Assembly (NCBI GenBank): GCA_021810605.1
Contig: JAJZIL010000001.1
Location: forward strand, 604 to 64,603
Direction: 5' to 3'
Source of the DNA: a bacterium
GTDB lineage: Bacteria > Patescibacteriota > Dojkabacteria > JAKAPS01 > JAJZLI01
Length of the DNA stretch: 64,000 nucleotides
Shown here: positions 155 to 64,000 of the stretch, one piece after another
How positions within the stretch are numbered: position 1 is the first letter of the stretch
Layout: every line of letters begins with the position of its first letter
The notes under the pieces: generated by a model
Told to the model about the DNA's origin: nothing
What the model saw: only the letters and a program-made list of their open reading frames with translations
The model's database searches: none
Made by a program: the position numbers and the translations under genes

Positions 155-496
155 TTATATATTTGAGAGATTGAATCTTAATGTAGTACCATTTATGAAG
201 TTTGTTGAAAAACTATTATTTGCAACAAAACTTCCAATAAATACAATTACTATATATGCCATAACTATAACTACTAAACCTAGTACTGCATACATTAATC
301 CCTGTTGTGCTTTCTGTTTTAATTCAGGATTGACACCACTAAATAAATACCTAATACCATTCCAGATTATCACTATAAATAAGACTAAAGTAATAAAATC
401 ATAAAGAAGACCTATTACTATTCCGAAATATCCTACTAATTGATATAAATGTGGAGTAGATGCTTGATTAATAGGAATATTATTATTTGCTGACAT
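155..496 (-). CDS. small membrane protein with VirB2/TrbC-like two-helix pilin module (paralog 1 of 5)
   Basis: 113 aa. Hydrophobic helix, then a short loop (SGVNPELKQKAQQ), then a second hydrophobic helix. The motif [IV]SGI[RK]x(5-8)EKxxKAQxx[LI]xxAIxGLxxI is shared with the four ORFs downstream. Confidence 0.45.
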   Translation of the reverse strand: MSANNNIPINQASTPHLYQLVGYFGIVIGLLYDFITLVLFIVIIWNGIRYLFSGVNPELKQKAQQGLMYAVLGLVVIVMAYIVIVFIGSFVANNSFSTNFINGTTLRFNLSNI

Positions 497-498
497 AA

Positions 499-1011
499 TT
501 ATTTAATACTACAATTAGAGCTTATTGGATTACTTGTAAATAGGGATCCTCCTACACCTAAAACACTTGTAACTATCTCAACTATCAAAAATGATCCAGC
601 TACAATGACAATCCCAAGTATTGCATGAATTATTGCAGTTTGAGCAGATGCGATTTTTTCTTTATCTCCTCCTGCAGTAATAATTTTAATTCCAGATAAG
701 ATTAGCATTACAAAAAAGGCTAATCCAGCTACAGAAAATAAGCCTACTATTATAGTACTTATAGTAGTTGATATTGAAGAACAACTACTAGGGATATTAC
801 TTGATGGTAAAAAATTACAATTACCTCCGCTAGGATTTCCTCCTAAAATAGTACAAGAACTTCCTCCTACAGATGTAGTAGATATAGTTTGTCTTGAAGA
901 TTGTATTCCTGTCTCAACTTTAGAGACTGCCATTGCATAATTAGGAGTTTTTAGGATAAAAACAAAAGTGAATAGGATCGCAAATACAAATAAAAAATTT
1001 TTTATCTTCAT
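499..1011 (-). CDS. secreted/membrane VirB2/TrbC-like pilin-family protein (paralog 2)
   Basis: 170 aa. N-terminal signal-like segment and a Cys/Ser/Thr-rich variable region. C-terminal TM - AGGDKEKIASAQTAI - TM module. Confidence 0.5.
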   Translation of the reverse strand: MKIKNFLFVFAILFTFVFILKTPNYAMAVSKVETGIQSSRQTISTTSVGGSSCTILGGNPSGGNCNFLPSSNIPSSCSSISTTISTIIVGLFSVAGLAFFVMLILSGIKIITAGGDKEKIASAQTAIIHAILGIVIVAGSFLIVEIVTSVLGVGGSLFTSNPISSNCSIK

Positions 1012-1766
1012 AAAGTGTGTATTAAGACTAAACTTATAATATAAGCAAGTATTATTATACTAGCACCGATAATAGCTCCAGTCAATACAGATTTAGCTTT
1101 TTCTACTTTATTACTGTCTCCACTAGAAGTCATAAATAAAAATCCTGCATATGATATTAACCCTAAAACTATAACCCCAATAAGGCCATATAATATTGGT
1201 AAAACTATTCCTAGTAATGTAGAAATTATATTTGAAGTTCCAACTGTCCCTCCTAAAGGATCTGAAATACTCCCAGTAGGAAGAGAAGTTACTCTGTGCT
1301 TACCTGAGCCTGAGGAGGAAGTTGGTAATATAGGATTATAAACCTGATAATAATGGCATCCAATGTGACCTATACAACTAGAAACAAGACCACTTGGTTC
1401 AGTATAAACAATTACAGTTCCTGCAGGTAAATTATAAAAATTAGAATTTAAATTTGGCTGAGTACAATTAATCAAGTTACCTAAAACTCCCTGAGGAGAA
1501 ATAGTTATCCCAATAAAACCTCCTGAATCAGATATAGCTTCTACATAATGAATTTCTCCATTACTTGAAGTACCATGATCTATTCCATATTGTAATTCTC
1601 CACACGAAGTTATTGAAGTTAAATTAGTTGAAGAAGTTGTAATTACACTACTAGCATGAATTAAATTATTCCCTCCTGAAAAAATACTAACTACATAAAA
1701 AAAGATTGATATAATTAGTAAAACTGAGAATAACCTACTTATTAAAAATTTTAATAAACTATTCAT
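1008..1766 (-). CDS. VirB2/TrbC-like pilin-family protein with variable Cys-rich ectodomain (paralog 3)
   Basis: 252 aa. The MNSLLK leader is shared with 2159-3004. C-terminal TM - SSGDSNKVEKAKSVL - TM module. 4-nt overlap with the upstream gene. Confidence 0.5.
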   Translation of the reverse strand: MNSLLKFLISRLFSVLLIISIFFYVVSIFSGGNNLIHASSVITTSSTNLTSITSCGELQYGIDHGTSSNGEIHYVEAISDSGGFIGITISPQGVLGNLINCTQPNLNSNFYNLPAGTVIVYTEPSGLVSSCIGHIGCHYYQVYNPILPTSSSGSGKHRVTSLPTGSISDPLGGTVGTSNIISTLLGIVLPILYGLIGVIVLGLISYAGFLFMTSSGDSNKVEKAKSVLTGAIIGASIIILAYIISLVLIHTL

Positions 1767-1818
1767 AAATATTTATTTTATAAACTAATATATAACATAT
1801 GTTACTTACCTTATTCAT

Positions 1819-2157
1819 TTATAATAATCCATTAAATATAGGTACTGCACTTGATAATACCTTAATTATAATTCCTGCAAAAACTATTAATGTTAGACCT
1901 ATTATTGCATATATAAGAGTACTTTGAGCTTTTGAAACTTTCTCTCTACTCCCATTTGAAGTAATAATTCTTATTCCTGATACTATAATAAGAACAAAGA
2001 ATACTATACCTACTATAAAATAAAATAAATTAAATATTGAACTAAATATATTAGTTAAACTTAAAGCATTACCAAAAGGACTTGTAATAGTAACTGAACA
2101 CTGAGAATTACTACATTGAGCAAAGACAGGGTTTATTATGTTTATATATTTTTCCAT
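1819..2157 (-). CDS. minimal VirB2/TrbC-like pilin-family protein (paralog 4)
   Basis: 112 aa. TM - TSNGSREKVSKAQSTL - TM module, with two N-terminal Cys. Confidence 0.5.
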   Translation of the reverse strand: MEKYINIINPVFAQCSNSQCSVTITSPFGNALSLTNIFSSIFNLFYFIVGIVFFVLIIVSGIRIITSNGSREKVSKAQSTLIYAIIGLTLIVFAGIIIKVLSSAVPIFNGLL

Positions 2158-2158
2158 A

Positions 2159-3004
2159 CTATAAATATTGTAAAAATTGAATATTAAATATTGCTCCTAT
2201 TGATGTAAGTATTATAAATGCAAATATTATAACAAGTAACCCAATTATTGATTTTGTCATAAGACTCTTTCCTCGCCCTAATTTTTCTGGATCTCCTCCA
2301 GATACCATAATTAAGTATCCAGCAAATATTATAACCGCAAATGCAAGCATAAAAGCTAAAGTAAGTACTATTTTATACACAAAATTTATTACCCCATATA
2401 AAGAAGTATCTATACATCCAAAATCAGTATATATATACTGATATGTACTTCCTCCCTTACTTACACAAGATATACATTGTGAATTTCCCCCACATGCAGA
2501 ACTAACTGAATATTTAGATGTTGAATTTGATGTTGAAGTACTAGTAGGTTTATAAAAATAGATAATAAAATTATTAGTTCCTTGAATTAAGGTGGCAAGA
2601 GATTCTACAGATGAAATATTTCCAACATTAATTTGATTAACAGTAGTATTATTTACCTTACAGTAAGAATTTACAACATTAGCAGAACTATTTATTTTTA
2701 GATACACAGTAACAATAAGATTTCCTACTTTACTACTATTAGAAATTTCAGTAACAGGGATAATAAAATTTGATCCTATTCCTGAACTAGAAATTGAGGA
2801 CACATTTAAATTCGAACTATTTGAATTATTAATAAGAGCTGAAGAAACCTGAGCAAAAGATTGACAAGTAACATAATTCTTAGTACTTGCATAAATTTTA
2901 CTAATATTATTATCTATTAATATATTAAACCCAGATAAAAATAATCCTACAGTTAATAAAATTAATAAAAATCTATACCCTATTTTTTTTAATAAACTAT
3001 TCAT
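2159..3004 (-). CDS. VirB2/TrbC-like pilin-family protein with large S/T/N-rich ectodomain (paralog 5)
   Basis: 281 aa. MNSLLK leader plus TM. C-terminal TM - SGGDPEKLGRGKSLM - TM module. Confidence 0.5.
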   Translation of the reverse strand: MNSLLKKIGYRFLLILLTVGLFLSGFNILIDNNISKIYASTKNYVTCQSFAQVSSALINNSNSSNLNVSSISSSGIGSNFIIPVTEISNSSKVGNLIVTVYLKINSSANVVNSYCKVNNTTVNQINVGNISSVESLATLIQGTNNFIIYFYKPTSTSTSNSTSKYSVSSACGGNSQCISCVSKGGSTYQYIYTDFGCIDTSLYGVINFVYKIVLTLAFMLAFAVIIFAGYLIMVSGGDPEKLGRGKSLMTKSIIGLLVIIFAFIILTSIGAIFNIQFLQYL

Positions 3005-12548: not shown

Positions 12549-13277
12549 TCATAAATATTTATCCAAATTATTATAAAAATTAGATTTATCATAAAAATTA
12601 AAGAAATTTAATTCTTCTTTATATTTTTTTAATTCTATATAAGATTCTACCTTATTTTTAATAAATTCAGATCTTTGTATATCAGGAAATATAAATATAA
12701 CTTTAGGAAAAACATCAAAATACTTTTTATATTCCATAGATAAATAAAAATTTGAATATACATCTATCTTATTAAGTATTTTAAAAAATGTCTCTGTTGA
12801 TCTATCTAGCTCTAAATAAATATTATTCTTGTTAAATATACAAAACCCATCTGGAATAATCTTATATGCTTTACCTTCATATTTAAAATATTTTGCAGTA
12901 TTAATATCAGAAACCCAATCAGAAAAAATATAATTATTTCTTAATGCATATTGTTTAAGATTTATAAAAAAAATATTAGATTCTAATATATGAGGAAGAA
13001 AAAATTGTTTATATGTGTCTTGTATATAGCTAAAAGTTTTCAGATTATTCCCTATAATTTTATTACCTTTTTTAGTAGAAAAATAATATCTAAAACCTCT
13101 ACGATTAGACACCCTCAAAAAAGAAATCAATTTATACTCATAAAGGAGATTTATTCTTTTTCTTAATGTACTAAGTTTTATGTCAAAAAATAAATTAATA
13201 TCTTTTACAGATAGACATGGATGTTGATCAATAAAGCTAAGAATCTGAATGTCTTTTTCTTTAATTTCCGTGTACAT
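12549..13277 (-). CDS. winged-helix protein, replication-relaxation-family-like with possible PD-(D/E)xK-like core
   Basis: 242 aa. N-terminal MarR-like wHTH (ILSFIDQHPCLSVKDINLFFDIKLSTLRKRINLLYEYKLI). Downstream IIPDGFCIF ... YLELDRSTE resembles the PDG...E.DrgTE motif of replication-relaxation proteins. Confidence 0.4.
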   Translation of the reverse strand: MYTEIKEKDIQILSFIDQHPCLSVKDINLFFDIKLSTLRKRINLLYEYKLISFLRVSNRRGFRYYFSTKKGNKIIGNNLKTFSYIQDTYKQFFLPHILESNIFFINLKQYALRNNYIFSDWVSDINTAKYFKYEGKAYKIIPDGFCIFNKNNIYLELDRSTETFFKILNKIDVYSNFYLSMEYKKYFDVFPKVIFIFPDIQRSEFIKNKVESYIELKKYKEELNFFNFYDKSNFYNNLDKYL

Positions 13278-13279
13278 AT

Positions 13280-13726
13280 CTAAAACAGATAATTCCGAAT
13301 CCTCTCTAATTCACCTTTTAAATATATGACTCCCAAACGAGTAAAGTCTCTTTTAATATTTTGTTGATTAGAAGATAAATCATTAAGAACAAATATTTTC
13401 TTCCCTAAAATATATGCAAAGCCTATATCCATATACATATTATAACCAATATATCCTAAGATATTATTCCAATCATAATTTAATATTAGAATTGAATCTG
13501 AACTTTGTATAAAATTATACTCTATATCAAAAGAGTCCTTTCTAAGCTTTAACAATGAAGTATTTTTAGCATCAGAATAACGACTTTTACTTGATTCTAA
13601 AAGATTATACTCTTCAAAAAATGGTAAATTGCAATCATATCCATACTCTTGTAATAATAACATAACCTTTTTAGATTCAATATAATTTTCTATTTTAGAA
13701 CAAATTAATATTTTTTTTCTATCCAT
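13280..13726 (-). CDS. nucleoside 2-deoxyribosyltransferase-like (NDT/SLOG-fold) small protein
   Basis: 148 aa. YMDIGFAYILGKKIFVL matches the NDT active-site region (FElGyAyAlGKPv) with Asp in place of the catalytic Glu. 8-nt overlap with the ATPase upstream. Confidence 0.4.
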   Translation of the reverse strand: MDRKKILICSKIENYIESKKVMLLLQEYGYDCNLPFFEEYNLLESSKSRYSDAKNTSLLKLRKDSFDIEYNFIQSSDSILILNYDWNNILGYIGYNMYMDIGFAYILGKKIFVLNDLSSNQQNIKRDFTRLGVIYLKGELERIRNYLF

Positions 13727-15719
13727 AAGTATTTAATAATCTAGAATAAATTGTATATACAGCATTATTATCATTTTTAGAGTAAATAAGATATCTATTT
13801 ATATTTGAAGGAATTTCAAAGTTTATAATATTAGAAAGATATTTCCTGGAACTCTCCCCAGTATCCATTATATAAAAATTTGAACAATTCTCTATGATAC
13901 TAGATAAATATTTTTTATCTATCTGATCTATATATTGATTCGCAACAAATACTGATAAATTGTACTTACGAGATTCTGAAAAGATAAATAGGACATTCTC
14001 GGATATAAAATTTTGAAATTCATCAATATACAAATATACATGATTCTTACTTTTTTTCTGAATAATAGTATTTCTTATCTGATTTATTATTAAAGATCCT
14101 AAAAATTTAGAATTCTCTTCCCCTACTACATTTTTTGGTATAGAAAATATTATACTTTTACCTTTATCAACAATAGAATTTAAATCTAAATTCTTATTTT
14201 CTCCAGATACAAACTTAGAAATAAACTTATCTGATTTGAGTCTACCTATCTTATTTATTATTGGAGAAATTCTATCCATCCTTGACCTATTATCCCACTT
14301 AGAAAAAATACTATCAAAGTAATCTAGTGTATCTTTATCTTTTAGAGTTAAAAGAACCTTTAATCTAAAGTGTTCATCTGTCAAAAATTCTTCTAAATCT
14401 AAAATATTATACTTATTTTCAGAAAATATTAAAGCTGAAAGACTTCTTCTTAAAATATCATCACTCTGAGGACCCCAAAACTCAGGATAAAGATCTTTAA
14501 ATATAGAAACAATATTATCAATTAAAAGATATTTATTCATATTTGGATCTAGATTTAAAGGATTAATAGAATATTTAATATCAGAAAAATCTACCAATAC
14601 ACAATTTTTTCTATCTTTTAAAGAGAGTTCTGATACTATCAAATCAGATAAATTATGGGGATCTATAACTATAGTAGATTTACAATTTTTAATATTCTGT
14701 ACAATTATATTTTTCATAAAAAGACTCTTCCCTGATCCAGTTTTTCCTATAAGATAACTATGTGATTTTAAGTATATATCCTTTATTCTAACCTTTTTCC
14801 CATTATTAAATCCTATAAATACACCTTTATTTTTATCCAATACTCTAGAGGGTATATTTAACTCTAAACTGTGCTTGACTAGATTTAAAGAATTATTACT
14901 ACTGACAATAGGTCTGAATATATGAGATAAATTTTTATTATAAAATAATATAGATTTAGCCTTATTATTAGATAATAATAGTGATACTCTATTTAGAATC
15001 TTCTTATCATTAGATTCAACTTTTAGAATAACTAGAGATAAATCCTTGAATCTATATGGATTTCTTAAAATAAAGCTAAAAGATACGCTTTTATTGTCTT
15101 TCAATATATTTAATATATCTTCATAGTAGTTATAAGAAGAATCTAATAACAAATATTTCTTATATAATTTTATCTCTCTTTTCTTAATAGTTGAGATAAT
15201 AATATCTGGGTAATTTAAATGTACAACATCTTTTATATGGTCTATATTTGCTTTACTAATTTGAACCGAATTATATACTTCTCCCCTTACATATTCATAA
15301 GAAATATTTAAAGGTAGTCCTAAAAAAATATCCTCTAGACTCTTATAATGGGGTGTTCTCGTGGAAGATAATTTTAAATTTACTTTTTTAACTATAAATA
15401 AAGATTTTATGAAGAAAAATAGATAATTTAATAGTATCAAAATAGACAACAAATATAGTTCCCAATATATATATTTATATGAATAAGCTAAAAAAATTAA
15501 TACTGGAATAAATGTTGCAAAAAATGATCTACTTACACTCTGAGAATAAGATGAAATTAAATTTTTTATTTTTGATATTAAAGTTCCTTCTGAATATAAA
15601 ATATGTATAATTATTAAAAGAAAAATAATAAATATTGGAATATAACTTTGAGGAAATAAAAAAATATATACAAAAAGTAATATTATTAGAAATTGGTTTA
15701 GATAAAAATTCTTTTTCAT
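13719..15719 (-). CDS. membrane-anchored FtsK/HerA-superfamily ATPase, TraG/VirD4-like type IV coupling protein
   Basis: 666 aa. Three to four N-terminal TM helices. Walker A LIGKTGSGKSLF followed by IVIDPHNLSD. Walker B VYLYIDEFQNF. ANQYIDQI resembles the QSxxQL motif of T4CPs. Confidence 0.6.
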   Translation of the reverse strand: MKKNFYLNQFLIILLFVYIFLFPQSYIPIFIIFLLIIIHILYSEGTLISKIKNLISSYSQSVSRSFFATFIPVLIFLAYSYKYIYWELYLLSILILLNYLFFFIKSLFIVKKVNLKLSSTRTPHYKSLEDIFLGLPLNISYEYVRGEVYNSVQISKANIDHIKDVVHLNYPDIIISTIKKREIKLYKKYLLLDSSYNYYEDILNILKDNKSVSFSFILRNPYRFKDLSLVILKVESNDKKILNRVSLLLSNNKAKSILFYNKNLSHIFRPIVSSNNSLNLVKHSLELNIPSRVLDKNKGVFIGFNNGKKVRIKDIYLKSHSYLIGKTGSGKSLFMKNIIVQNIKNCKSTIVIDPHNLSDLIVSELSLKDRKNCVLVDFSDIKYSINPLNLDPNMNKYLLIDNIVSIFKDLYPEFWGPQSDDILRRSLSALIFSENKYNILDLEEFLTDEHFRLKVLLTLKDKDTLDYFDSIFSKWDNRSRMDRISPIINKIGRLKSDKFISKFVSGENKNLDLNSIVDKGKSIIFSIPKNVVGEENSKFLGSLIINQIRNTIIQKKSKNHVYLYIDEFQNFISENVLFIFSESRKYNLSVFVANQYIDQIDKKYLSSIIENCSNFYIMDTGESSRKYLSNIINFEIPSNINRYLIYSKNDNNAVYTIYSRLLNTYG

Positions 15720-29832: not shown

Positions 29833-29837
29833 ATCTA

Positions 29838-30224
29838 TTAAAATATCCCCTCTAACTTATAATCTAATGTCAGAAATTTATCTGCTATATCTATTAAATA
29901 TGGTGAAATCATTTGTTTTGAATCTAAAGCTGTAAGATAAACATTTCCTCCTTGTTCTTCAATTGCTTCAAATAGGGGGATATAATCTCTATCATTTACC
30001 AGGAATACTGTATTTTGGATTCTATTATTTACTATAGATAATAATGCATCATAGAATAATTTAATATATAATCCTTTTTCTCTTTTTTGAAAATAATACC
30101 TATATTTAGAGTCTAGTTTTTCAAGTTCTGAACCAGGAAACCCTTTCTTAATATTAATCCTATACTCTAGAATTTCCCAATAATCTTTATATCTCGAGGT
30201 TCTAGAGTCTAATATATTAATCAT
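29838..30224 (-). CDS. NYN/LabA-like nuclease domain, C-terminal portion
   Basis: 128 aa. TVFLVNDRDYIPLFEAIEEQGGNVYLTAL aligns to the NYN 'vlvSgDsDfvplv..lre.GkkVivv' block, with the DxD retained. Confidence 0.45.
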   Translation of the reverse strand: MINILDSRTSRYKDYWEILEYRINIKKGFPGSELEKLDSKYRYYFQKREKGLYIKLFYDALLSIVNNRIQNTVFLVNDRDYIPLFEAIEEQGGNVYLTALDSKQMISPYLIDIADKFLTLDYKLEGIF

Positions 30225-35523: not shown

Positions 35524-35759
35524 ATATTTTGAGATAATTACCTTATTAATATATAGTTACGATTAAAACTAAATCTTATAAAATTAAATCAACATCATTA
35601 TAAGCTATTTTTTAAATTTCATCAAAAAATATTATATATTATTTGATAAGAATAATATATAATACAATGAAAATCTAAAACAAAATTTTTGTGGAGTAAT
35701 TTTTAAAAAATTAATTTATCAATAAATATAAATATTTAATAGCAATATTGTGTGTATTT

Positions 35760-35960
35760 TTTATTATTAAACTCCTCTGGATTATAATAAGTCCTATATA
35801 CCCACCTTTATCTACACCAGATGAAATAACCAGATTTACTAGGATTCAAAATTATGTAAAAGGAGAACATCTCCTTTATACTATTTTGTTATATCAAATA
35901 TAGATAAATTATTTATACATACTAGGGTATATTCCCAATTTAAAATATTAGAATACTCTG
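35760..35960 (+). pseudogene. decayed N-terminal fragment of a paralog of the GT-C-like gene at 30697
   Basis: Translates to FIIKLLWIIISPIYPPLSTPDEITRFTRIQNYVKGEHLLYTILLYQI-stop, then DKLFIHTR in another frame. This parallels IIESIWIITIPTLSTPDSPYKLDNIQNYAKG...LYYTITGNIDKLFIHTR of 30697. A stop and a frameshift are present. Confidence 0.5.
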
Positions 35961-36022
35961 GAAAAATGAGTCAGAAAGTTAATACCAGAACTTCATATAT
36001 AACTACAGTTATAAAATAGTAT

Positions 36023-39281: not shown

Positions 39282-39348
39282 TTCTCCAATAAAATAAGAT
39301 ATCTTTACTCTAATTGATTCTCTATGTAAAAATATGCTAGATTAAGTT

Positions 39349-41448: not shown

Positions 41449-41451
41449 ATT

Positions 41452-43566: not shown

Positions 43567-43576
43567 TAATAAGTTT

Positions 43577-44107
43577 ATGAATAAGAATAGGGACTTTATA
43601 ATAATAATACTTGTAATAATTATAATAGTACTTTCTATAGTAATATATAGCCAAGATAAGAAGTCCGCAACATTAAAGACAAGTAATTCTAGTACAATTA
43701 ATACTCCTGCAACAATAAATAAAGGGATAACATCTAAAACAGAATCATTTCCAAATCAAAACCCTACAACAGTAATACAATATATAATAGGACACTATAA
43801 TAGTTGTATTGATAGTAGTATATGTCCAATATCATCTAATTTCAGAACAATATCTAAAAAATATATTAAGAATAAAGGAAAATTAAATCCAATAACCAGA
43901 CTTACTGGAAACTTTCTAACACCTACCTACTCTATAGTTACTGAACTTCCAACTATATCTATAATAAAAGTTTCTAATTTTAATGGAAGTAATTCAATTG
44001 AATATGATCTTTCAAATATAAATAATAAATGGGTACTGACAAATTCTTACTGTTTTAATAATCCAGATTCTAAGATAACAGCTACAAATATAATATCTTG
44101 TAACTAG
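43577..44107 (+). CDS. membrane-anchored hypothetical protein
   Basis: 176 aa. N-terminal TM FIIIILVIIIIVLSIVIY, then an S/T/N-rich domain with 4 Cys. Confidence 0.5.
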   Translation: MNKNRDFIIIILVIIIIVLSIVIYSQDKKSATLKTSNSSTINTPATINKGITSKTESFPNQNPTTVIQYIIGHYNSCIDSSICPISSNFRTISKKYIKNKGKLNPITRLTGNFLTPTYSIVTELPTISIIKVSNFNGSNSIEYDLSNINNKWVLTNSYCFNNPDSKITATNIISCN

Positions 44108-54373: not shown

Positions 54374-54784
54374 TCAATAAGTATAAATAATATTTTTACT
54401 TTTGGGATTTATTCCATGGTTTAATAAAAACTTCTTAGCTTCATTTGTTTTACTGTGCACTTGAGATAAGACAGTTTTAGGATCTAGAAAGTTTATACCT
54501 ATGATATGGACATACACTTTATCACCTTTAATATTACCACTTGAATTGCTTCCTGAAACATAATGAATTGAGAAATTTTCACCACTATAATTAAGTGCTC
54601 CTAAGCTAAACTTAGATTTATTTATTACTGGAACTCCTTTTGGTATATTTATATTATTTGATATCCCAGATGAAGGATTTAAATCAAAAGCTCCTTGTAA
54701 TAAAGAAATGATTATTATAATTACTATAATAGATATTAATAAATAAATAATTTTTCTATTTTTTTGTATAAATGTTAAATTCAT
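54374..54784 (-). CDS. small N-terminally anchored protein, paralog of 55551-55949
   Basis: 136 aa. MNLT..., TM, then PKGVPVINKSKF...HYV...GKNIIYTY, alignable to the 132-aa paralog. Confidence 0.45.
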   Translation of the reverse strand: MNLTFIQKNRKIIYLLISIIVIIIIISLLQGAFDLNPSSGISNNINIPKGVPVINKSKFSLGALNYSGENFSIHYVSGSNSSGNIKGDKVYVHIIGINFLDPKTVLSQVHSKTNEAKKFLLNHGINPKSKNIIYTY

Positions 54785-55542
54785 CCGCTTATTATAATCT
54801 GTGGACCTATAAATGTACTTAAAAATTCTTTTAAACTAGATCTTTGAGAACTATTTGATACTCCAGCAGAACCCACTATAGGAGTATATTCCTCCATCAT
54901 ATATGTAAATAGATCAGTAGTTTTACATTCTGAGTTAGTACCACTACCAGCAACTGCATATCCTGTAGATTTCATTTCTTGTTCAAAAGTAGTTTTATAA
55001 CTAATAAAACTTTGAATAACACAACTTAATCCTGATTGAAATGGTTCTGGGCCAGGAGGACAATTAAAATTTTCTCCATTAGAACCAGGAGCACTAAAAG
55101 TACTTTCTTGTCCCCAGATAGCTGCAATAAATCTAGGATCACAATAATAATTTCCTGAAGAACTCTGACATTCAGATATTATCTGATTTATATTACTAAA
55201 ATGAGAAAAACCAAGACTTGATAAATAACTCTCCATTAAATTAAAATCTGAATTATTTAAAGAAATATTTCCAGAAATAGATATTAAAGGTTGAGAAGTT
55301 GTCCAAGGCTCAGGACAATACCCTGTTGATACAGGAATCGGGGATGTAATAGTAGAAGAACTAGATCCACTTAATATTATACCCGAAGGATTATTATATT
55401 CAGAAATTGTATTTGTACACCAAGGTTGTAACTCAACTCCAGTAGCATAAAGATTTTTAGGGTGTAGAATAAAAATAGCTAAAACTATAATAAAAGTAAA
55501 TGTAAAGATATTTTTTATATATTTATAGTCCTTGTTTTCCAT
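54781..55542 (-). CDS. secreted Cys-rich protein, possible lytic-transglycosylase (SLT)-like hydrolase
   Basis: 253 aa. N-terminal TM/signal. FIAAIWGQESTFS resembles the SLT 'aIa.qESgfn' catalytic block. The downstream GLMQ-type motif was not found. Confidence 0.35.
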   Translation of the reverse strand: MENKDYKYIKNIFTFTFIIVLAIFILHPKNLYATGVELQPWCTNTISEYNNPSGIILSGSSSSTITSPIPVSTGYCPEPWTTSQPLISISGNISLNNSDFNLMESYLSSLGFSHFSNINQIISECQSSSGNYYCDPRFIAAIWGQESTFSAPGSNGENFNCPPGPEPFQSGLSCVIQSFISYKTTFEQEMKSTGYAVAGSGTNSECKTTDLFTYMMEEYTPIVGSAGVSNSSQRSSLKEFLSTFIGPQIIISG

Positions 55543-55550
55543 TATTTAAC

Positions 55551-55949
55551 CTAATTATATACATATATAATATTTTTTCCTTTTGGATTTATACCGTATT
55601 TTCTTAAATAATTTTGAGCAAGACTAAGATATTCAGATTCCTGACTTTTTAAAAGAGAATTCTGGTAGAAATTAATATTTTTTATATCTACATAAATTTT
55701 TCCTCCTTTTGAAGGATTCTTTGGAACATTTGGAACATAATGAACATCAAAGTTAAAACTATTATAATCTATAGCACTTAGTTTAAAAAGCTTTATATTT
55801 GCAATAGGAACTCCTTTGGGAACTTTTATAGTTTTTTCATTATTATTCTGAAAAAAAAGACTAAATATAATACTTATTATAATAACAATTAGTATTATAG
55901 GAATAACATAATTCAATTTAAACTTTGCTCTTATTTCTGTTAAATTCAT
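55551..55949 (-). CDS. small N-terminally anchored protein, paralog of 54374-54784
   Basis: 132 aa. MNLTEIRAKF..., TM, then KVPKGVPIANIKLFKL...HYV...GKNIIYVYN. Confidence 0.45.
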   Translation of the reverse strand: MNLTEIRAKFKLNYVIPIILIVIIISIIFSLFFQNNNEKTIKVPKGVPIANIKLFKLSAIDYNSFNFDVHYVPNVPKNPSKGGKIYVDIKNINFYQNSLLKSQESEYLSLAQNYLRKYGINPKGKNIIYVYN

Positions 55950-55983
55950 AATTATATTATAATACTGTTTCCAAATTATATCT

Positions 55984-58263
55984 TTAATTCCAAACTGGCC
56001 AATTAGAAGGAATTGTTCCTGGAGAAATATTTGTTCCCTGAACTTTTCCAGGTGGAGCCCCTAATGAAGCAAGTAGTTCACTATAATTTATACCATATGC
56101 AGTAGAATTTCCAACTGTACCGTTAAATTGACTTGCACCAGCTGCTATATCAGAAATACCATTTGCCCAACCAGTTTCTATTCCATACCCACAATTTATC
56201 ATATTACCTATAACAGTATTTGTTGTAACTGTTTCCCCTACAGTAACAGTAGGATTAATACATTCTGCAACATATGAATATAGACCTGCAGCAGGACCAG
56301 AAGTTAACTGTTCTTCTATAAAAATATTATTAGGACCCCATCCACTCCCATTTGGAGCATTTACATATGTTATTCTCCCTGGACCAAGAGCATATACTGG
56401 GCCTGTACCTGAATAATCAACTCCTTGATCAATTCTCTCTGGAGACAAATTTGATACTGATCTTAAAGGATTCTGATATATTCCTGTTGCAGATACAGAT
56501 GTATTTGTATTTGAACTTGTAAGTATATATTTGACAGGAGTAGATTGTGTACAAGCAAAAGGATTATATGAACCTAAATCAGCTGATACAATTGGATCAT
56601 TTGTAGAAAGAGCTCCTACATAAACAAGGTATAATAGTAATGGATCAGGAAATTGAGATCTATCTGTAATATAATACTCCCCTTCAGGCAAAGGAGAACT
56701 TACACCTGAGTTAGAATTAGTATTTGTAGTATTATTTGAAAAATAAGGTTGAAATTTATGTATATCTAGATTTTCTTCTATTATAGGAACATTCCCTAGC
56801 CAAGGGAATTCATAACTTACTGATTGGCTATTTGTACCAGAACCAGTTGAAGTAAGACAAGCTACAGAGCTAGCTGGTTGTAAAGAAACATTTAAAGATA
56901 CATTTATTCCAATTCCTGAGAACAGATTACTCTGTATTTCTGTAGCTGTTTGAACTTGTCCAATATTAGGTCCTTGAGTAACTGTATAAGAAGTATTATT
57001 TTGCAAAGCAGAAAGTACTCCAGGATAAAGAGAACTAGTTTGAGGATTTACATAATCTTGCCAGGCATTAATATTTGTATGACCAATTGGCTGCCCATCA
57101 TCTAAAGATGCCTCCATATACCATTCATCTGCTAATATTCTATTTAAACCTTGTAGATATAAATTTGGAGAAATACTGTAAGTATAGCTACTTTGACAAT
57201 TTACAATTTTACAACTCTCATTAACATTAATAGTAAAAGGACTACTCATATAACTACTATTTGTAACAGAATTTGTATCTGTTGTATTTTGTTGGCTAGA
57301 TAAAGGACAATACCCTTGAGGAAGATTAGTTATAGGAGGAGTTGGTCCAGACCCAAAAAAATTTAGAACACTATTATAGATACCTCCTAAAAAATTACTA
57401 ATACCAGAGAGCAGATTTGAATTAGATCTATAATATCCTCCTATAGTGTCACTTGAGGTTTTAGTTGGATTATATGGATCTCCATAAGGATCAATTAATT
57501 TACAAGTAAAATTTCCATTATTATTTGATGTAAAAGTAGCACAATCACTATTTATATTATTCTGATTAACAGTTCCAAATTGATTTAAAGGACTACTACT
57601 GACAACAGAACTGTTTGGAAGTTGCAAAGGATTATATTGATTATCTAAAATATAAGTACTTCCTAAGGTAAATAAATCTGCAGCATTCCCAAGATAAGGA
57701 ACTGGAAAAAATGCTACTCCAGAAGAAGGATTCAATGTAGATACTGAAATATTTTCTGTCATTGAATTAGAGCTAACTGTTGAATTTATCAGATTAACAT
57801 TATAACCTCCTAATCCAAGAACATTTGTATTCCCTAGTTCAGAAAAATTTACATAAGGATCCATACCCAATTTTTCAACCAGATATCCATATGGAGTATA
57901 TGGATTTCCTTGCCCATTATTATATGCTGTACCATTAGAATTTATAGAGTCAAAATAATTTAATAAACCAAAATTCTGTAATTGTACATCAAAAGCTAAA
58001 GATTGAGTCGCTTTAAGAGTTTCTGTACCCTTAGAATGATTTACACTAACAACTTTTAATGGAATATTATAACTGAAACTAGAAGGGTTTGTATTACAAG
58101 ATGTAGCCATATGATTAGGAAAACTAAATGGATTTGATCCTGCACTAGGACAAACTACTAAAGGCTCACTAGAAGCATATACACTTCCTACTCTTAGAAA
58201 AAAGACTATTATTATTGAAATAATATATATATATTTATAATGCAATTTTAATTTCGGGTACAT
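55984..58263 (-). CDS. large secreted S/T/N/G-rich surface protein (adhesin/fibre-like)
   Basis: 759 aa. Signal/TM YIYIISIIIVFFLRVGSVYAS. Low-complexity Asn/Ser/Thr-rich. Confidence 0.5.
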   Translation of the reverse strand: MYPKLKLHYKYIYIISIIIVFFLRVGSVYASSEPLVVCPSAGSNPFSFPNHMATSCNTNPSSFSYNIPLKVVSVNHSKGTETLKATQSLAFDVQLQNFGLLNYFDSINSNGTAYNNGQGNPYTPYGYLVEKLGMDPYVNFSELGNTNVLGLGGYNVNLINSTVSSNSMTENISVSTLNPSSGVAFFPVPYLGNAADLFTLGSTYILDNQYNPLQLPNSSVVSSSPLNQFGTVNQNNINSDCATFTSNNNGNFTCKLIDPYGDPYNPTKTSSDTIGGYYRSNSNLLSGISNFLGGIYNSVLNFFGSGPTPPITNLPQGYCPLSSQQNTTDTNSVTNSSYMSSPFTINVNESCKIVNCQSSYTYSISPNLYLQGLNRILADEWYMEASLDDGQPIGHTNINAWQDYVNPQTSSLYPGVLSALQNNTSYTVTQGPNIGQVQTATEIQSNLFSGIGINVSLNVSLQPASSVACLTSTGSGTNSQSVSYEFPWLGNVPIIEENLDIHKFQPYFSNNTTNTNSNSGVSSPLPEGEYYITDRSQFPDPLLLYLVYVGALSTNDPIVSADLGSYNPFACTQSTPVKYILTSSNTNTSVSATGIYQNPLRSVSNLSPERIDQGVDYSGTGPVYALGPGRITYVNAPNGSGWGPNNIFIEEQLTSGPAAGLYSYVAECINPTVTVGETVTTNTVIGNMINCGYGIETGWANGISDIAAGASQFNGTVGNSTAYGINYSELLASLGAPPGKVQGTNISPGTIPSNWPVWN

Positions 58264-59101
58264 ATATATACATTGGTAATATGGTATTATTTATTATATC
58301 AGCTTTTGCAGAAAGGATATATATTGGAATTATATTACTATTTTTAAAGTCAATAAAGAAACCTTGCCTCTCAGAGATAAAAGATATATTTTGAATTTGA
58401 AGATTTGTATTAATATATGAAAATGTTTTACTTAAATTACTACCTTTAAGTATAAAATTAGAACTTATAGCTAATCTTTTAGTTAAATTAAAAGGGTATA
58501 TAGAAAAACTTACAAAATTATTACTATCTGTAAAAATAAATTCATCATAAAATTTCATACCGTCTGGTTTATATATATAGCTATTGTTTATTCTTGGATA
58601 ATAATACAGAATTTGATCTAATCCAGAAAATACTAAATTCTTATCAAAATTAATCCCAGAAATCCCAAATGTATTTGAAATAATAGAATTAGAGTAAGAA
58701 TAAATATTTACTTTTTGAGAATCATTTTTAATTGAATAAAAATAGCTATTATTGCTATAAACTAAAGATTGTTCCCCTACATACCATACAGTTTGATTAC
58801 TAGACTCTGTAGTAGGTGGACTACTTATACCAAGATTTGATGCTATCTGATAATCAGTTTTACTAAAATAGAATGAATAATAATTACTTTGAGATGATTC
58901 TAAATTTAGAGAAAATTTCTGATTAATATTTGATACTGTATCATTTGAGAAATTAACTTTTGGAACACTCTTAGATACGGGTATTGTACTTTTTAAAGAA
59001 CTATTAGTTACAACTTTATTAACATTTGTTCTAAAAGCAAAATATAGATATAAAAGAATTATAAATATTATAAATGGCAAAACTAATCTTAGATATTTCA
59101 T
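58235..59101 (-). CDS. secreted hypothetical protein
   Basis: 288 aa. N-terminal TM LRLVLPFIIFIILLYLYFAF. 29-nt overlap with the downstream gene. Confidence 0.45.
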   Translation of the reverse strand: MKYLRLVLPFIIFIILLYLYFAFRTNVNKVVTNSSLKSTIPVSKSVPKVNFSNDTVSNINQKFSLNLESSQSNYYSFYFSKTDYQIASNLGISSPPTTESSNQTVWYVGEQSLVYSNNSYFYSIKNDSQKVNIYSYSNSIISNTFGISGINFDKNLVFSGLDQILYYYPRINNSYIYKPDGMKFYDEFIFTDSNNFVSFSIYPFNLTKRLAISSNFILKGSNLSKTFSYINTNLQIQNISFISERQGFFIDFKNSNIIPIYILSAKADIINNTILPMYIYVPEIKIAL

Positions 59102-59103
59102 AT

Positions 59104-62100
59104 TTATTCTCCTAAATATTCCCCTTTATACAAAGTCTCACCTTTGTACAGATATGGATTTGTTGTATTTATTTTTAATATACCAGAAGAAGTTTTTACA
59201 AAAATAGTATCAGCAGTAATACTTCCTGGATTATTTTCTATATTTATAATTTTACCAGAAGTATTTAGAAAAGATGAGGCAGGAGTTGAATTATGATTTA
59301 CTGTATTTGATGTATTATTATTATTTCCTCCAGAAGTTGTTCCTCCTCCTATCAGTGAAGCCATTAACCCCCAACCCAGAACCATTATAAATATTGTACG
59401 TAGAAAATCATCTATATCAAATTCTGTTTTAAATAAAAGAGCTAGTATTCCTATTAGTATATCGAACCCTAAAGATGCAACAGCTGCAGCTTGTCCGAAC
59501 CAACTTCCTATTGTACTTACTACTTTTTTGAAAAAATCTCCTACATAAAAAAATATACCGTGTCCAAAAACTCCTTCTAAAAAGAAATTAATTCCAATGA
59601 CTCCAATTCCAACAACACCAAGACCTGCGAGGGTAGCAACATATCCTCCAACTCCAAAAATTCCAGCACCAAGAGCTCCGAAAACTCCAGCACCACTAAG
59701 AGCTGCTGCCAAACCTCCTGAAATCCCTACTGCAGAAGCTATACCAAAACCTGCAGTCAAAGCACTTCCTAAAAAGCCTCCTATTCCTCTTTGAAAAAAT
59801 AATCCTTTCCAAAAATCTAAAGTTGCTAACTGAGTATCAAAATATACAAGAAAAGCAGGATCAAATATTTTATCTCCAATAAAATTCATAAATCTTGCAG
59901 CTAATCCTTTAACTCCTTCAACTGCTGGATTTAAAAGACGATAGACCCCCCAAGCAGCCCCCACTCCAGCACCAAATAATATTCCAGGAATAGTACCAAA
60001 GAAATAACTAGCTACTAATCCTGCTACTAAACCTGGAGTAGCTCCACTATCAATAAATTTAGAGGTTTTAATTATAGTATCTTTAGACAGAATATTGCCA
60101 ACCACAGCAGTACTTGGATCCATTTTTGAAAGAATTGTCAAACCTGTTTTTAATCCAATATATCCAGCAGTAATTCCCATTAAAATAAGAGGATTTGTAA
60201 CACCCAAAAATACTGAAATTATAACTCCTCCAAAGACTCCAGAACTGAAGTTTTTAAACAAATCTTCTGTCGTTATATTAAACTTAGGATAAAGATTAAG
60301 ATTTATTGTTGTACTAATCTTTCCTAATGCACCTAATCCTGAATTTTTTAAAGCTATAAGAATAGGTTCTTTTAGCTCAATACCCACAATAGATTTTATA
60401 ATAGATTCTGAATCGAAAAGCCTTGCAAAAGCATCCTGGTCTTTCATCTCCATAAATAACTCTCTAAAAGATAAAGAATTATCAGCTCCTTTGAAAAGAT
60501 CTGGGAATACACTACCTACTGAAATATTTATATTTGTTAAAAATTTATAAAAATCAGAGCCCACAAATGAAACACCTAAATCAAAACCTCTAAATTCTTC
60601 CACACTTCCAAATTTTTCAACAAATTCTGGATATTTAAGATCTAAATTTAAACCATGCTCTGATAAAAATGTTCTTATATCAGTGTTTGAAAGACTATTA
60701 TATAGATCCATCTCTCCTCTAGAATTAAAAAAATCTAGTAATTTTCCTTTTAAAATTTCTGGATCTATAAAATTTTTTGCAAGAGGGTCTTTTAATATAT
60801 CTGATATTTTATAATATGAACTCATTTCTCTAGAAACCAATTTGGTTCCAAACTTAGATCCATCTCGAATATTTTGGAGAGATTTTTCAAATCTAGACAT
60901 TATTTCCTCATCTTGTGACCATCCAGCTAGATCTTTTATATCTTCTCTGTATATATTTTTCATCAAAGAATCAAATCTCTCTGAATTATCTAAATTTTCA
61001 TATATATTTTGGATATTAGAATCAGCTGATAATTTATCTATCAATTCTGGACTAAGATTTCTCCCAAAAGGATCTCTTAGTGACCTTAAGAAATCTTCTA
61101 GATTAGTAGCACTCATATTTATACTCTCTCCATAGAAATTGAAAGCATTAGAAGGATCATATCCTCTCAAAACTTCCTGATGTAACAAAGAAGAATCTTC
61201 TCTTATTGTTTTAAGTTCATCTACTATATATCTAGCATCTGGAATGAATATTTTTGGGTCATGAAAATATTCATAAATTCCTTTATCAGAATAGAATCTG
61301 TCTAACATATCACTTGTATATCCACTTTTATAAAATTCTCTATACAAAGATTCTTTTTCTAGTGCTTTTAGGAAATCTAATCTTTCGGAAGTAAGCCTAA
61401 GATCTCCTTCAAGAAGTGTTCTTTCAGCTAAAGGTTTAGAATCAATTATAAATCTTGATCCTCTTTTTCCTATATAAGTAACTATAGATGAAATTCCACC
61501 TGAAACTACAGCTCCTATAACTGCCCCTACTGGTCCTCCAAAAGCAAAACCTATTAAAGCAGCTCCTCCTGTAAAACCAACACCAATATGAACTACATCA
61601 TATGCAGTTATGCCTGATATATTGTGTAGAACTGTATCCTCAAATAAAGATGATTTAAAGAAATCTGCAACCCCTCCAGAAACCAAACCTGCACCTGCTA
61701 GACTTAAGAATAAAGGATTTCCTGTAAAAAGAGCTAGTCCTATACCTACTAGACTTCCAGCTCCTCCAAACTCAATAAGATATTCTGATTTAAATAAAAA
61801 AGAAGATCCTGAATCTAGTGCTGCAGAATAGCTACCTATAGTCCTACCTACAAAAGATAGATCTACTGCTTTCAAAGCAGAACCTACTCCAAATAATCCT
61901 ACTCCTACAGCCACAAGAGGAAGTCCAGTTACCCCAAAAAGTGCTGCTGCAATAGTACCTACAACTGCAGTTGTTACTCCAAAAGTTCCTGATTTAAAAA
62001 TAATCTCAGGAAGAGAAAGCGCTCTGTCTGTCATTGTTGAAGCTATTCTTTCAATAATATTTGAAACTAATGGATTTTGTACAGAAAAATAATTTGCAAA

Positions 62101-63669
62101 ATCTAGAGAAAACTTAGGGACAAAATATGCCAAACCAAAACCTACACCTAAAATTGGATTTGATAAAGTTAATCCAACAATAAGTCCTGGAACTAAGGCT
62201 TCTATTCCATCCTTTGCAATAAGTTTTGCTACTCCAAAACTAAATCTAAAACTATCTAATGAAGTTAGAACTCTCCCCATTAATCCTTCCCCAGTAACAT
62301 TTCTCAAAAGTGAAAATGTTAATTCTTGCCTTTCTCCAACATACTCTGCAAGCTTAAATATAGTTTTATCTATAAGGAATTCTGCTGCTAAAATAATTGC
62401 ACCTGGAAGAAGAGCTAGAAAATCTAAAAACTTTAAAACTCTTCTTTTCTTTATTTTAGGACGCCTTTTTGTAGGAGATATAGAACCTACTCCTCTTAAT
62501 CTTTTCGAAATTTTTGAATTATTTATTTTTCTTCTTAAAAAATCTATTCTTGTTATTCTTCCTGTTGAAGGATTTCCTTCTATATTTTCTAATCTTTCCT
62601 TAAAAGCAGTTTCAAAATTTTCTGAGAATTTTTTTCCTTCAGTATTAATAAAAGAATTTGATAACTCAGACCAAATATATCCAGACCTATATTGAGAATG
62701 AAGATTCTTTTTTTCTGGATATAAAAATTTATTTACCCGTCTATATTTTAAAAGAGATATAGAATCTGAAGAACGTACTCTTCCTATATTTTTTTCATTT
62801 ACAAGTTTATTTAAAAGAGATACATACGAATGAGTATTTTCTTTTGCAACCCTTTCTACTATAGGATTTCTTTCTTTTGCAATTTCTGCACTCCATTTAG
62901 AAACCTCTGAACTAGAAGTTGTTCTTGATACAACTAAAGTTTTTTCCCATTGAGACATAAGTTTCCAGGAAGAAGGAAGCGAAAATAATTTAGATTTTTT
63001 AATTTTTCTATGAGAATCATTATCTAAGACAAATTCTAAAAGATGATTAAATTTAAAGGTTTTATCATTAATTGGTGCAGCAGAAATATCAACCCCTTTT
63101 TGATCTTTTAATATCTGAATTCTACCTTCATCTGTCTTTATTGGATTAAGATTTTCATCCAATGCATACATATAACCTTTTGTATATAATGTTTCTATCT
63201 CTTTTTCTATTACAGAAAGCCAAAGATTTCCTCTCCCTGTTAAATCTCTTTGAAATCCATCTAATCCAAATACATATTTTTTACTAGATCTAAGTGCAAA
63301 TTGAGGATAAAAATTCTTTGCTATTGCAGGGACTAAAGCTTGAGCTAAAAGATATGCTTCTCTATCTTTGAAGTTCCTTTTGTAAATAGTTGATAGATGT
63401 TTTGAAAAATCTCTGTATAAATTTTCTGTAATTGTAAGTTGAATAAACTTTTTTGATTGAGAAACTTTTACTATTGGGGAAAGTTTATTTATTAATTCTT
63501 GAGGAATAGTTCTATTATCTATAGACCCAGAATTTCTATATTCGTCTAAATATGAAGATAGATTGATTCTAGATAAAGATATATCTCTAGCAAGATCAAT
63601 ATCTCTATAATAATTATCTGTATATAATAAATTTAATTTACTTCTTAAAGATTCTAAATCAGCATTCAT
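59104..63669 (-). CDS. giant (1521 aa) polytopic membrane protein with two clusters of glycine-zipper TM helices; VirB6/TrbL-like candidate
   Basis: About 430 aa soluble N-terminal region, about 10 Gly-rich TM helices (aa ~430-760), a ~300 aa soluble region, then about 10 more TM helices (aa ~1080-1420). C-terminal GGTTSGGNNNNTSNT low-complexity tail. Confidence 0.55.
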   Translation of the reverse strand: MNADLESLRSKLNLLYTDNYYRDIDLARDISLSRINLSSYLDEYRNSGSIDNRTIPQELINKLSPIVKVSQSKKFIQLTITENLYRDFSKHLSTIYKRNFKDREAYLLAQALVPAIAKNFYPQFALRSSKKYVFGLDGFQRDLTGRGNLWLSVIEKEIETLYTKGYMYALDENLNPIKTDEGRIQILKDQKGVDISAAPINDKTFKFNHLLEFVLDNDSHRKIKKSKLFSLPSSWKLMSQWEKTLVVSRTTSSSEVSKWSAEIAKERNPIVERVAKENTHSYVSLLNKLVNEKNIGRVRSSDSISLLKYRRVNKFLYPEKKNLHSQYRSGYIWSELSNSFINTEGKKFSENFETAFKERLENIEGNPSTGRITRIDFLRRKINNSKISKRLRGVGSISPTKRRPKIKKRRVLKFLDFLALLPGAIILAAEFLIDKTIFKLAEYVGERQELTFSLLRNVTGEGLMGRVLTSLDSFRFSFGVAKLIAKDGIEALVPGLIVGLTLSNPILGVGFGLAYFVPKFSLDFANYFSVQNPLVSNIIERIASTMTDRALSLPEIIFKSGTFGVTTAVVGTIAAALFGVTGLPLVAVGVGLFGVGSALKAVDLSFVGRTIGSYSAALDSGSSFLFKSEYLIEFGGAGSLVGIGLALFTGNPLFLSLAGAGLVSGGVADFFKSSLFEDTVLHNISGITAYDVVHIGVGFTGGAALIGFAFGGPVGAVIGAVVSGGISSIVTYIGKRGSRFIIDSKPLAERTLLEGDLRLTSERLDFLKALEKESLYREFYKSGYTSDMLDRFYSDKGIYEYFHDPKIFIPDARYIVDELKTIREDSSLLHQEVLRGYDPSNAFNFYGESINMSATNLEDFLRSLRDPFGRNLSPELIDKLSADSNIQNIYENLDNSERFDSLMKNIYREDIKDLAGWSQDEEIMSRFEKSLQNIRDGSKFGTKLVSREMSSYYKISDILKDPLAKNFIDPEILKGKLLDFFNSRGEMDLYNSLSNTDIRTFLSEHGLNLDLKYPEFVEKFGSVEEFRGFDLGVSFVGSDFYKFLTNINISVGSVFPDLFKGADNSLSFRELFMEMKDQDAFARLFDSESIIKSIVGIELKEPILIALKNSGLGALGKISTTINLNLYPKFNITTEDLFKNFSSGVFGGVIISVFLGVTNPLILMGITAGYIGLKTGLTILSKMDPSTAVVGNILSKDTIIKTSKFIDSGATPGLVAGLVASYFFGTIPGILFGAGVGAAWGVYRLLNPAVEGVKGLAARFMNFIGDKIFDPAFLVYFDTQLATLDFWKGLFFQRGIGGFLGSALTAGFGIASAVGISGGLAAALSGAGVFGALGAGIFGVGGYVATLAGLGVVGIGVIGINFFLEGVFGHGIFFYVGDFFKKVVSTIGSWFGQAAAVASLGFDILIGILALLFKTEFDIDDFLRTIFIMVLGWGLMASLIGGGTTSGGNNNNTSNTVNHNSTPASSFLNTSGKIINIENNPGSITADTIFVKTSSGILKINTTNPYLYKGETLYKGEYLGE

Positions 63670-63671
63670 AA

Positions 63672-64000
63672 TTAATCATACTCATAATTAAATAGATTTT
63701 CTACATAAGTTTTATTTGCAAAAAAATTATTAATATCATCTTCACAGAAAGTTCCATTTTGTATTATTTGAAACATACGAAAAACTAAACTATCTTCATC
63801 TGCATCAAGAAAAAAAGAGAATATACCATCTAATTGAATATATTTTCTTATCTTTGATAGAATTATTTCATTTTTTATATATTTAAATCCAGATAAACCT
63901 TTATATTTATCTAAATAACTATAATTCTCATCTTTTGTTATCTCTAATCTTAAGTCTAAATCAGTATATTTTTGTCTTGATATAAAAGATTCTTTTTCTA
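63672..64000 (-). CDS. 3' (C-terminal) fragment of a hypothetical protein whose start lies beyond the window end
   Basis: Hand translation of the minus strand gives an open 108-codon frame (...FRMFQIIQNGTFCEDDINNFFANKTYVENLFNYEYD-stop). The stop is 2 nt before the ATG of the 1521-aa gene. Confidence 0.4.
   Translation of the reverse strand, partial: EKESFISRQKYTDLDLRLEITKDENYSYLDKYKGLSGFKYIKNEIILSKIRKYIQLDGIFSFFLDADEDSLVFRMFQIIQNGTFCEDDINNFFANKTYVENLFNYEYD

Follow-up and report, generated by a model that had tools for sequence, protein, structure and literature searches.

Which machine is encoded by the block of genes at positions 54374-63669 of contig JAJZIL010000001.1 (assembly GCA_021810605.1), a contig of a Dojkabacteria bacterium within the Patescibacteria? 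Positions are counted within the 64,000-nucleotide stretch of DNA analyzed here, which we refer to as the window. The sequence-only reading of the window had described this block as a surface apparatus that might belong to a dispersed type IV secretion system (T4SS) or to an undescribed envelope-spanning machine, with a giant protein of 1521 amino acids (aa) as its VirB6-like channel. We consider it probable that the block is a clade-specific, dispersed or rearranged piece of the MPF-FATA-like T4SS already known from Patescibacteria. The VirB6 homolog of the operon is not the giant but a 528-aa protein encoded upstream of it, outside the window.

The block consists of six tightly packed minus-strand open reading frames (ORFs), with overlaps of 4 and 29 nucleotides (nt) and gaps of 2, 8 and 34 nt, in DNA that is very AT-rich (20-34% GC across the window). 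All six ORFs were found where the sequence-only reading had placed them, but the end of the window is not the start of the block. The exact sequence of the giant is also present on a 243-kb metagenomic contig and in assembly GCA_027425035.1, where the operon extends upstream by two co-oriented genes, p222 (222 aa) and then p528 (528 aa). p528 and p222 overlap by 1 nt, and p222 ends 2 nt before the start of p1521. The full operon therefore reads p528, p222, p1521, p288, p759, p132, p253, p136, and the six window genes are its distal three-quarters. The genes, named by the length of their products, are as follows:

L001 7744-9330, equivalent to window positions 64340-65926 and wholly outside the window: p528, a VirB6-like polytopic protein that heads the operon.
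63672..64000, minus strand: 3' part of p222, the last ~109 codons of a 222-aa gene that runs off the window.
59104..63669, minus strand: p1521, 1521 aa, a giant membrane protein and clade-restricted orphan.
58235..59101, minus strand: p288, 288 aa, bitopic, with an N-terminal transmembrane (TM) anchor and an extracytoplasmic domain.
55984..58263, minus strand: p759, 759 aa, secreted, with a signal peptide (...VYA/SS), 11 Cys and a predicted C-terminal peptidoglycan-endopeptidase-type module.
55551..55949, minus strand: p132, 132 aa, small and bitopic, a paralog of p136.
54781..55542, minus strand: p253, 253 aa, Cys-rich, anchored or secreted, with an invariant Glu146-Ser147.
54374..54784, minus strand: p136, 136 aa, small and bitopic, a paralog of p132 and the last gene of the operon.

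Upstream of p528 lie trmD, a thioredoxin gene (trx), a type IV pilin-like gene and dnaA/dnaN. The operon belongs to a small clade of very AT-rich Patescibacteria, and in about 10 loci of this clade the eight genes keep both their order and their place beside dnaA, with p528 homologs that are 50-70% identical to that of the window genome. Because the order of the block is conserved in these related loci, the six ORFs are real genes rather than chance ORFs, and the synteny across relatives that had been named as a check on the block was borne out. General annotation was of little help: no operon protein had a match above threshold in Pfam, NCBIfam or PHROGs, profile searches of every family against PDB sequences returned artefacts only (dTor designed repeats for p288, JAK2 for p222, chorismate mutase for p1521), and tRNA and Rfam scans of the window gave no matches.

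The link to a T4SS rests on p528. An AlphaFold model of p528 was built from an alignment of 34 sequences, and its TM core had a predicted local distance difference test score (pLDDT) of ~75-93 per 10-residue block. Against the PDB, the six top-ranking folds were all TrwI/VirB6 chains of the R388 T4SS (PDB 7o3v, 8rt9, 8rtd), with probabilities of 0.66-1.00, and below them stood unrelated helical proteins with probabilities of at most 0.16, so that the TrwI/VirB6 chains were the sole credible fold matches. p528 itself reached no Pfam threshold; one of the 34 family members matched Pfam TrbL (PF04610) with an E-value of 1.6e-4. p528 differs from TrwI/VirB6 in being longer, 528 aa against ~260-270 residues in the matched chains, and in carrying, besides an N-terminal helix and a TM segment, an ectodomain of ~120 aa that was modelled poorly.

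Gene context elsewhere pointed in the same direction. The p528 family gave 39 word-index matches and was found at 368 loci among species-representative genomes, nearly all of them Patescibacteria and largely Microgenomates. Context was counted in the loci outside the clade that were at least 18 kb long with full 10-kb flanks (n = 37). PF18895-type pilins lay within 10 kb of the p528 homolog in 37/37 of these, and PrgI, TrsD and VirB4 were present in 17/37, 15/37 and 12/37, respectively. In the same flank test, pilins, PrgI, TrsD and VirB4 were each found in 0/7 loci of the clade. Taken together, the fold matches, the TrbL match in the family and the synteny elsewhere identify p528 as a VirB6-type polytopic channel or platform protein, the VirB6-like component looked for in a T4SS. 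The proposal that the envelope-associated block is tied to a dispersed T4SS was thus supported, with a VirB6-like gene at the head of the operon and pilins and a coupling protein elsewhere in the window.

Two observations were made on the loci of this family in other genomes. In the canonical clusters, a large protein of 837-1210 aa with 0-1 predicted TM helices is encoded convergently, directly after the VirB6-like gene (L003 8762-12163, L005 11516-14029, L079 11452-15084, L036 11283-14843, L018 11642-14944, L019 11744-15295, L025 11697-14900). Its placement is near-universal there and it is absent from the clade of the window; no Pfam match was found in L003 and L005 (precomputed listings) or in L079 (direct scan). 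Furthermore, many species-representative metagenome-assembled genomes titled 'uncultured Pseudomonadales' or 'Gammaproteobacteria bacterium' (L018-L021, L025, L026 and ~30 others) carry the VirB6-like family together with Patescibacteria-type pilin arrays, and these titles are probably wrong taxonomic labels.

The second link is provided by p759. Its N-terminal region of ~600 aa is conserved and had no match to known proteins, and its C-terminal ~150 residues form a peptidoglycan-endopeptidase module that is interchangeable across orthologs. In 7/9 orthologs this module is NlpC/P60 (best E 2e-8); these keep GIDCSG and QHVA and an intact Cys/His, and three of the seven also matched CHAP. In the window p759 and the L017 ortholog its place is taken by a module resembling M23 (E 1.5e-3 and 5.8e-4, short of the gathering score; for the window protein 19.1 bits against 28.7 for PF01551), and the Cys-His pair of NlpC/P60 (PF00877) is present in neither, the module having been replaced. 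When the window p759 was aligned with canonical M23 domains encoded in the T4SS clusters that other Patescibacteria carry (M23 E 1.9e-17), IDQGVD and GINY stood in place of HTGVD and HLHYE, so that the zinc-binding and catalytic histidines are replaced and the module is therefore a degenerate LytM-type domain at best. Degenerate LytM domains such as those of EnvC and NlpD, which are activators of division amidases, usually bind or regulate rather than cleave. On this sequence evidence, p759 carries a peptidoglycan-endopeptidase-type module that is predicted to be catalytically intact NlpC/P60 in most orthologs and degenerate in the window genome. The protein had been taken for a low-complexity fibre; the module argues against a fibre, and because ~100 columns are invariant across orthologs, the protein is not of low complexity.

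The VirB1 analogues of monoderm T4SSs include CwlT of ICEBs1, PrgK of pCF10, TraG of pIP501 and the proteins of the CD419/TrsG profiles. p759 resembles such wall hydrolases in that a secreted or anchored protein ends in an NlpC/P60/CHAP or M23 module and is encoded together with VirB6, and a possible separate muramidase-like partner, p253, is encoded nearby. It differs from them in that the module is swapped between orthologs and degenerate in the window genome, that the N-terminal 600 aa are unmatched, and that no significant SLT or lysozyme domain was detected in the operon. M23 hydrolases adjoin PrgI/VirB4 in canonical Patescibacterial clusters, and PMC12102498, citing PMC10633639, gives the peptidase and lysozyme homologs downstream of virB4 as essential in Southlakia.

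Between the two small paralogs lies p253, in which the Cys-rich character and the QESTFS block that had suggested a lytic transglycosylase were confirmed (seven Cys in total). Its family is tiny, with eight matches, and Glu146-Ser147 in 'AAIWGQES' is invariant across nine sequences. The best PDB sequence match was goose-type lysozyme 3gxk, aligned on the catalytic ES at a weak E of 1, and SLT_2 (PF13406) gave E ~0.011 over ~25 residues in 3/9 family members. By eye, two divergent members show GPYQFEPST and KYNAG/KYNGG-like motifs. No significant domain-level sequence or fold match of p253 to SLT (PF01464), SLT_2 or G-type lysozyme was found; fold searches were negative with a model of pLDDT 66.

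In p1521, a soluble N-terminal region (1-410) is followed by TM bundle 1 (410-735), a soluble middle region (740-1130), TM bundle 2 (1139-1444) and an N/S/T-rich tail. Each hydrophobic bundle has roughly 7-9 predicted helices, and [GAS]xxx[GAS]xxx[GAS] motifs number 23 in bundle 1 and 27 in bundle 2, against 0-2 in the soluble parts, so the two glycine-zipper bundles of the sequence-only reading held up. Conservation is strongest in bundle 1, where K, D and P residues are invariant, and the C-terminal end NPYLYxGExxYKGEYLG is also conserved. An exhaustive HMMER search with residues 1-1140 against 1.84 billion representatives retrieved 11 relatives, all from this clade. The comparison of the giant with TrbL/VirB6, on which its assignment as VirB6-like depended, came out negative: there was no TrbL/VirB6 match among 10 family members even at E<=1, and alignment of the p1521 family with the p528 family by hhalign gave a probability of 0.8% over 15 columns. 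No PDB sequence match of p1521 was obtained, hhalign against VirB4, TrsD, PrgI and the Gly-zipper-M23 proteins described below gave probabilities under 5% throughout, and a search for an internal repeat found none between the two TM bundles. A remnant of M23 in the tail was also considered, one family member having an M23 E-value of 0.13; this reading was dropped because hhalign gave 1.4%.

The Gly-zipper-M23 fusions occur in T4SS clusters of other loci (L079 16591-19434, L036 15509-18349, L073 16869-20186, L005 17795-20950) and have a cytoplasmic N-terminal region of ~400-650 aa, a Gly/Ala-rich TM bundle, an ectodomain and an M23 domain. They measure 947-1105 aa beside PrgI (L079, L036), with a related protein of 1051 aa after VirB4 (L005), and are candidates for the part of Microgenomates T4SSs that crosses the wall. 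In our operon, p1521 followed by p759 gives the same order of features across two genes. A bitopic protein of 354/359 aa follows the fusion gene in L079/L036, lying between the fusion and PrgI, so that the order p1521, p288, p759 echoes that layout. With hhalign, the probabilities against the fusions were 4.8% (TM stretch only), 0.1-0.2% for p759 and 1.4% for the p1521 tail against M23. Since no homology could be shown, the likeness is an architectural analogy only, and it could be convergent or compositional.

The remaining proteins are small or soluble. p132 and p136 are true paralogs, as had been proposed, with a phmmer E of ~1e-24, 44% identity, and a shared MNLT start, single TM helix, PKGVP, HYV and KNIIY. 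p132 has a TM helix at 15-33 and an ectodomain of ~95 aa; its profile search against the PDB was negative, and hhalign of p132 against p288 and against pilins gave probabilities under 5%. In some relatives a protein of 229-233 aa with no Pfam match replaces p132 between the p759 and p253 genes (L010 19710-20411, L009 20172-20861), so the duplication of the small protein is not common to the whole clade. p288 is clade-specific and has an N/S/T/Y-rich extracytoplasmic domain of ~260 aa. It tentatively matched the 354/359-aa proteins of L079/L036 (E 2e-4 in a small database), a weak link that hhalign against the 354-aa protein of L079 did not confirm (4.5%); its PDB search was negative, and hhalign of p288 and p132 against PrgI gave less than 1%. 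A TM-plus-ectodomain topology is shared by p132, p136 and p288, and the ~95-aa ectodomain of p132/p136 appears short for an NTF2-like (VirB8) domain. p222 is acidic and predicted to be cytoplasmic, lacking a TM helix; it had no detectable relatives outside the clade, and hhalign against TrsD gave 0.1%.

Both the VirB2-like pilin array and a VirD4-type coupling protein are present in the same genome, and the pilin-like array and the ATPase resembling a type IV coupling protein (T4CP) noted in the sequence-only reading were both confirmed by domain matches:

155..3004, minus strand: pilin array, five of seven tandem PF18895 VirB2-like T4SS pilin genes.
12549-13277, minus strand: Replic_Relax (PF13814) protein, from Pfam.
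Within 12549..15719, minus strand: a 148-aa ORF.
13719-15719, minus strand: T4CP/VirD4-like ATPase, 666 aa, with TraG-D_C and DUF87 matches.

The two further pilin genes lie beyond the start of the window (L007 10429-11362), and all seven are divergent in sequence. The array is ~51 kb from the block, and no other VirB6 candidate adjoins the pilin array or the T4CP gene in the window genome. We regard 12549..15719 as a putative substrate-coupling module that lies away from the other T4SS parts and in which Replic_Relax and the ATPase could be a relaxase-T4CP pair; such pairs are uncommon in Patescibacteria according to the 2025 survey (PMC12102498), which also reported that T4CP genes are usually far from VirB4 in this group. 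The same minus-strand run holds a Peptidase_S51 gene. After the pilin array lie HSP20, SbcCD-like genes and a SpoIID-domain protein, and a SpoIID-domain gene flanks the array of L005 too.

The suggestion that the kind of system might be undescribed was not upheld, because Patescibacterial T4SSs with pilin arrays near dnaA have been published. These systems are derived from MPF-FATA and have VirB2-like pilin arrays (PMC10633639; PMC12102498; review PMC12857230), a location near dnaA is typical of them (PMC12102498), and the T4SS was essential for epibiotic growth in Southlakia (PMC10633639). The system of the window genome shares with Southlakia epibionticum SEML1_0006-0019 and with the survey of Quinonero-Coronel et al. 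(2025) a monoderm type, PF18895 pilin arrays, a VirB6-like protein, hydrolases and a distant T4CP, and it also shares the chromosomal location near dnaA/dnaN. It differs in that the VirB6-like gene is ~60 kb from the pilins, the two being adjacent in 37/37 other loci, in that VirB4, TrsD and PrgI were not found in ~84 kb of the window genome, and in that VirB6 is co-operonic with five clade-only proteins including the 1521-aa giant. The dispersed arrangement and the clade-only set of partners, including the giant, are specific to this clade.

Considering all the above results, we propose a plausible model for the operon. It would encode the membrane and cell-wall subassembly of the MPF-FATA-like T4SS of this lineage, a subassembly that in this clade would have become separated from the VirB2-like pilin array and the coupling-protein gene. 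p528 would act as the channel or platform, and p759, with the possibly muramidase-like p253, would remodel or bind the wall locally in the manner of VirB1 and so let the apparatus cross it. p1521 may be a lineage-specific membrane scaffold or a channel partner of VirB6; p288, p132 and p136 may be bitopic extracytoplasmic assembly or spacer subunits, with a role as of VirB8-like proteins in monoderm systems; and p222 may be a cytoplasmic adaptor. Power for the complex would come from a VirB4 ATPase whose gene, like those of TrsD and PrgI, would lie at another place in the genome. The established elements of this scheme are the VirB6-type protein, the hydrolase-type module swapped between orthologs, and the tightly coupled operon with its conserved synteny; we infer the roles of p1521, p288, p132, p136, p222, p759 and p253 within the subassembly.

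Several points weigh against assigning the operon to a T4SS. The VirB6 fold match of p528 is weak in absolute terms, with an E-value of 0.014 and a TM-score of 0.42 on the target. Besides p528 and the hydrolase module, profile and hhalign searches showed no operon protein to be homologous to any T4SS component; the HxxxD and HxH zinc-binding and catalytic motifs of M23 are not present in the window p759, and p253 is a possible lysozyme- or lytic-transglycosylase-like hydrolase at the level of motifs and as such unproven. Co-transcription of the operon is judged from spacing only, and promoter and terminator scans of the operon gave counts at the level of shuffled sequence and were uninformative. 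Moreover, neither VirB4, with HMMER-type profiles from 15 Microgenomates VirB4s and filters off, nor PrgI (VirB3/PrgI) and TrsD were found in ~84 kb of the window genome (record 13815-97329) or in 286 kb of clade DNA, so that the functional link to an ATPase is assumed, not shown. To our knowledge, the VirB4 ATPase is the only universal marker of T4SSs. VirB4 was detected in 2417/3035 Patescibacterial assemblies, leaving ~20% in which it was not detectable (PMC12102498); the assembly of the window genome is absent from the supplementary tables of that survey.

Alternatively, the operon could encode an autonomous, lineage-specific envelope machine, whether for the attachment of an epibiont to its host, for feeding, or as a wall-remodelling or division complex, which captured a VirB6-type protein and needs neither VirB4 nor pilins. 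Six of the eight operon proteins are without T4SS homology, the family of the giant is confined to the clade, the operon is physically apart from the pilins and the T4CP, no VirB4 was found in the searched DNA, and about a fifth of Patescibacterial assemblies have no detectable VirB4. Against this, the p528 family stands beside T4SS pilin arrays in every one of the loci counted outside the clade, the retained seven-gene pilin array and T4CP would be left with no VirB6 partner, and we know of no function of VirB6 proteins outside T4SSs. We therefore hold this reading to be rather unlikely. A further departure, in which the VirB6-type protein has lost its tie to the VirB4/PrgI/TrsD motor and been rebuilt into a VirB4-independent, T4SS-derived conduit for host exchange around p1521 and the clade-only bitopic proteins, would be a type of machine not yet described; it seems to us improbable.

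Two other explanations were weighed. One takes the giant itself for the channel subunit, an 'extended VirB6' comparable to the very large VirB6 paralogs of Rickettsiales; this is suggested by its many hydrophobic helices and large hydrophilic domains, which resemble extended VirB6 proteins (PMC12857230), and by its position two genes downstream of the VirB6-like gene. The failure of its family to match TrbL/VirB6, the p528 family or any PDB sequence, the lack of a detectable repeat between its two bundles and the presence of a better candidate, p528, in the same operon make this very unlikely. We give equally little credence to a peptidoglycan-remodelling operon, of autolysin or regulator type, that serves growth or division and has a VirB6-like gene adjacent to it by chance. 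The NlpC/P60 or degenerate LytM modules of p759, the possible muramidase motif of p253 and the textbook role of EnvC and NlpD would fit it. On the other hand, p528, p222 and p1521 are joined through overlapping or abutting start and stop codons and every clade locus keeps the order, the operon contains no division or amidase genes, and the same hydrolase types are standard accessories of monoderm T4SSs (PMC12102498). The reading of the operon as a dispersed part of the Patescibacterial T4SS is the one that we retain.

Other features of the window were recorded alongside. At 27286-30224 an 848-aa KAP-family P-loop NTPase adjoins a 128-aa NYN-domain protein, and the two may be a defence or RNA-targeting pair. 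Glycosyltransferase genes are dense at 10120-11598, 18921-20177, 25192-27217 and 33379-37816, with GT2, GT4 and a 714-aa methyltransferase-GT1 fusion, which points to a large locus for surface glycans situated between the parts of the T4SS. The region 38000-44000 has a GC content of 0.30-0.34, compared with ~0.22-0.25 around it, and contains ORFs of 439, 699 and 704 aa. A class I aminoacyl-tRNA synthetase of 733 aa with tRNA-synt_1 and Anticodon_1 domains is encoded at 51410-53611; it is probably a valyl-tRNA synthetase, and 733 aa is short for that family.

None of these results overturns current understanding. In cultivated Patescibacteria, the T4SS is among the few machines that have been demonstrated to be essential to an epibiotic way of life (PMC10633639), and VirB6 was reported to be scarce or absent in Microgenomates in the 2025 survey (PMC12102498). 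For that VirB6, the 528-aa family, with its 368 mostly Microgenomates loci, is a good candidate. The swap of NlpC/P60 for a degenerate LytM domain, the Gly-zipper-M23 fusions elsewhere and the orphan giant here indicate that the envelope-facing parts of the T4SS turn over very fast, a pattern expected of components in contact with a host. Furthermore, a VirB6 that is accompanied by new partners and stands apart from the pilins and the ATPase represents a natural experiment on which parts of the T4SS need to be co-expressed.

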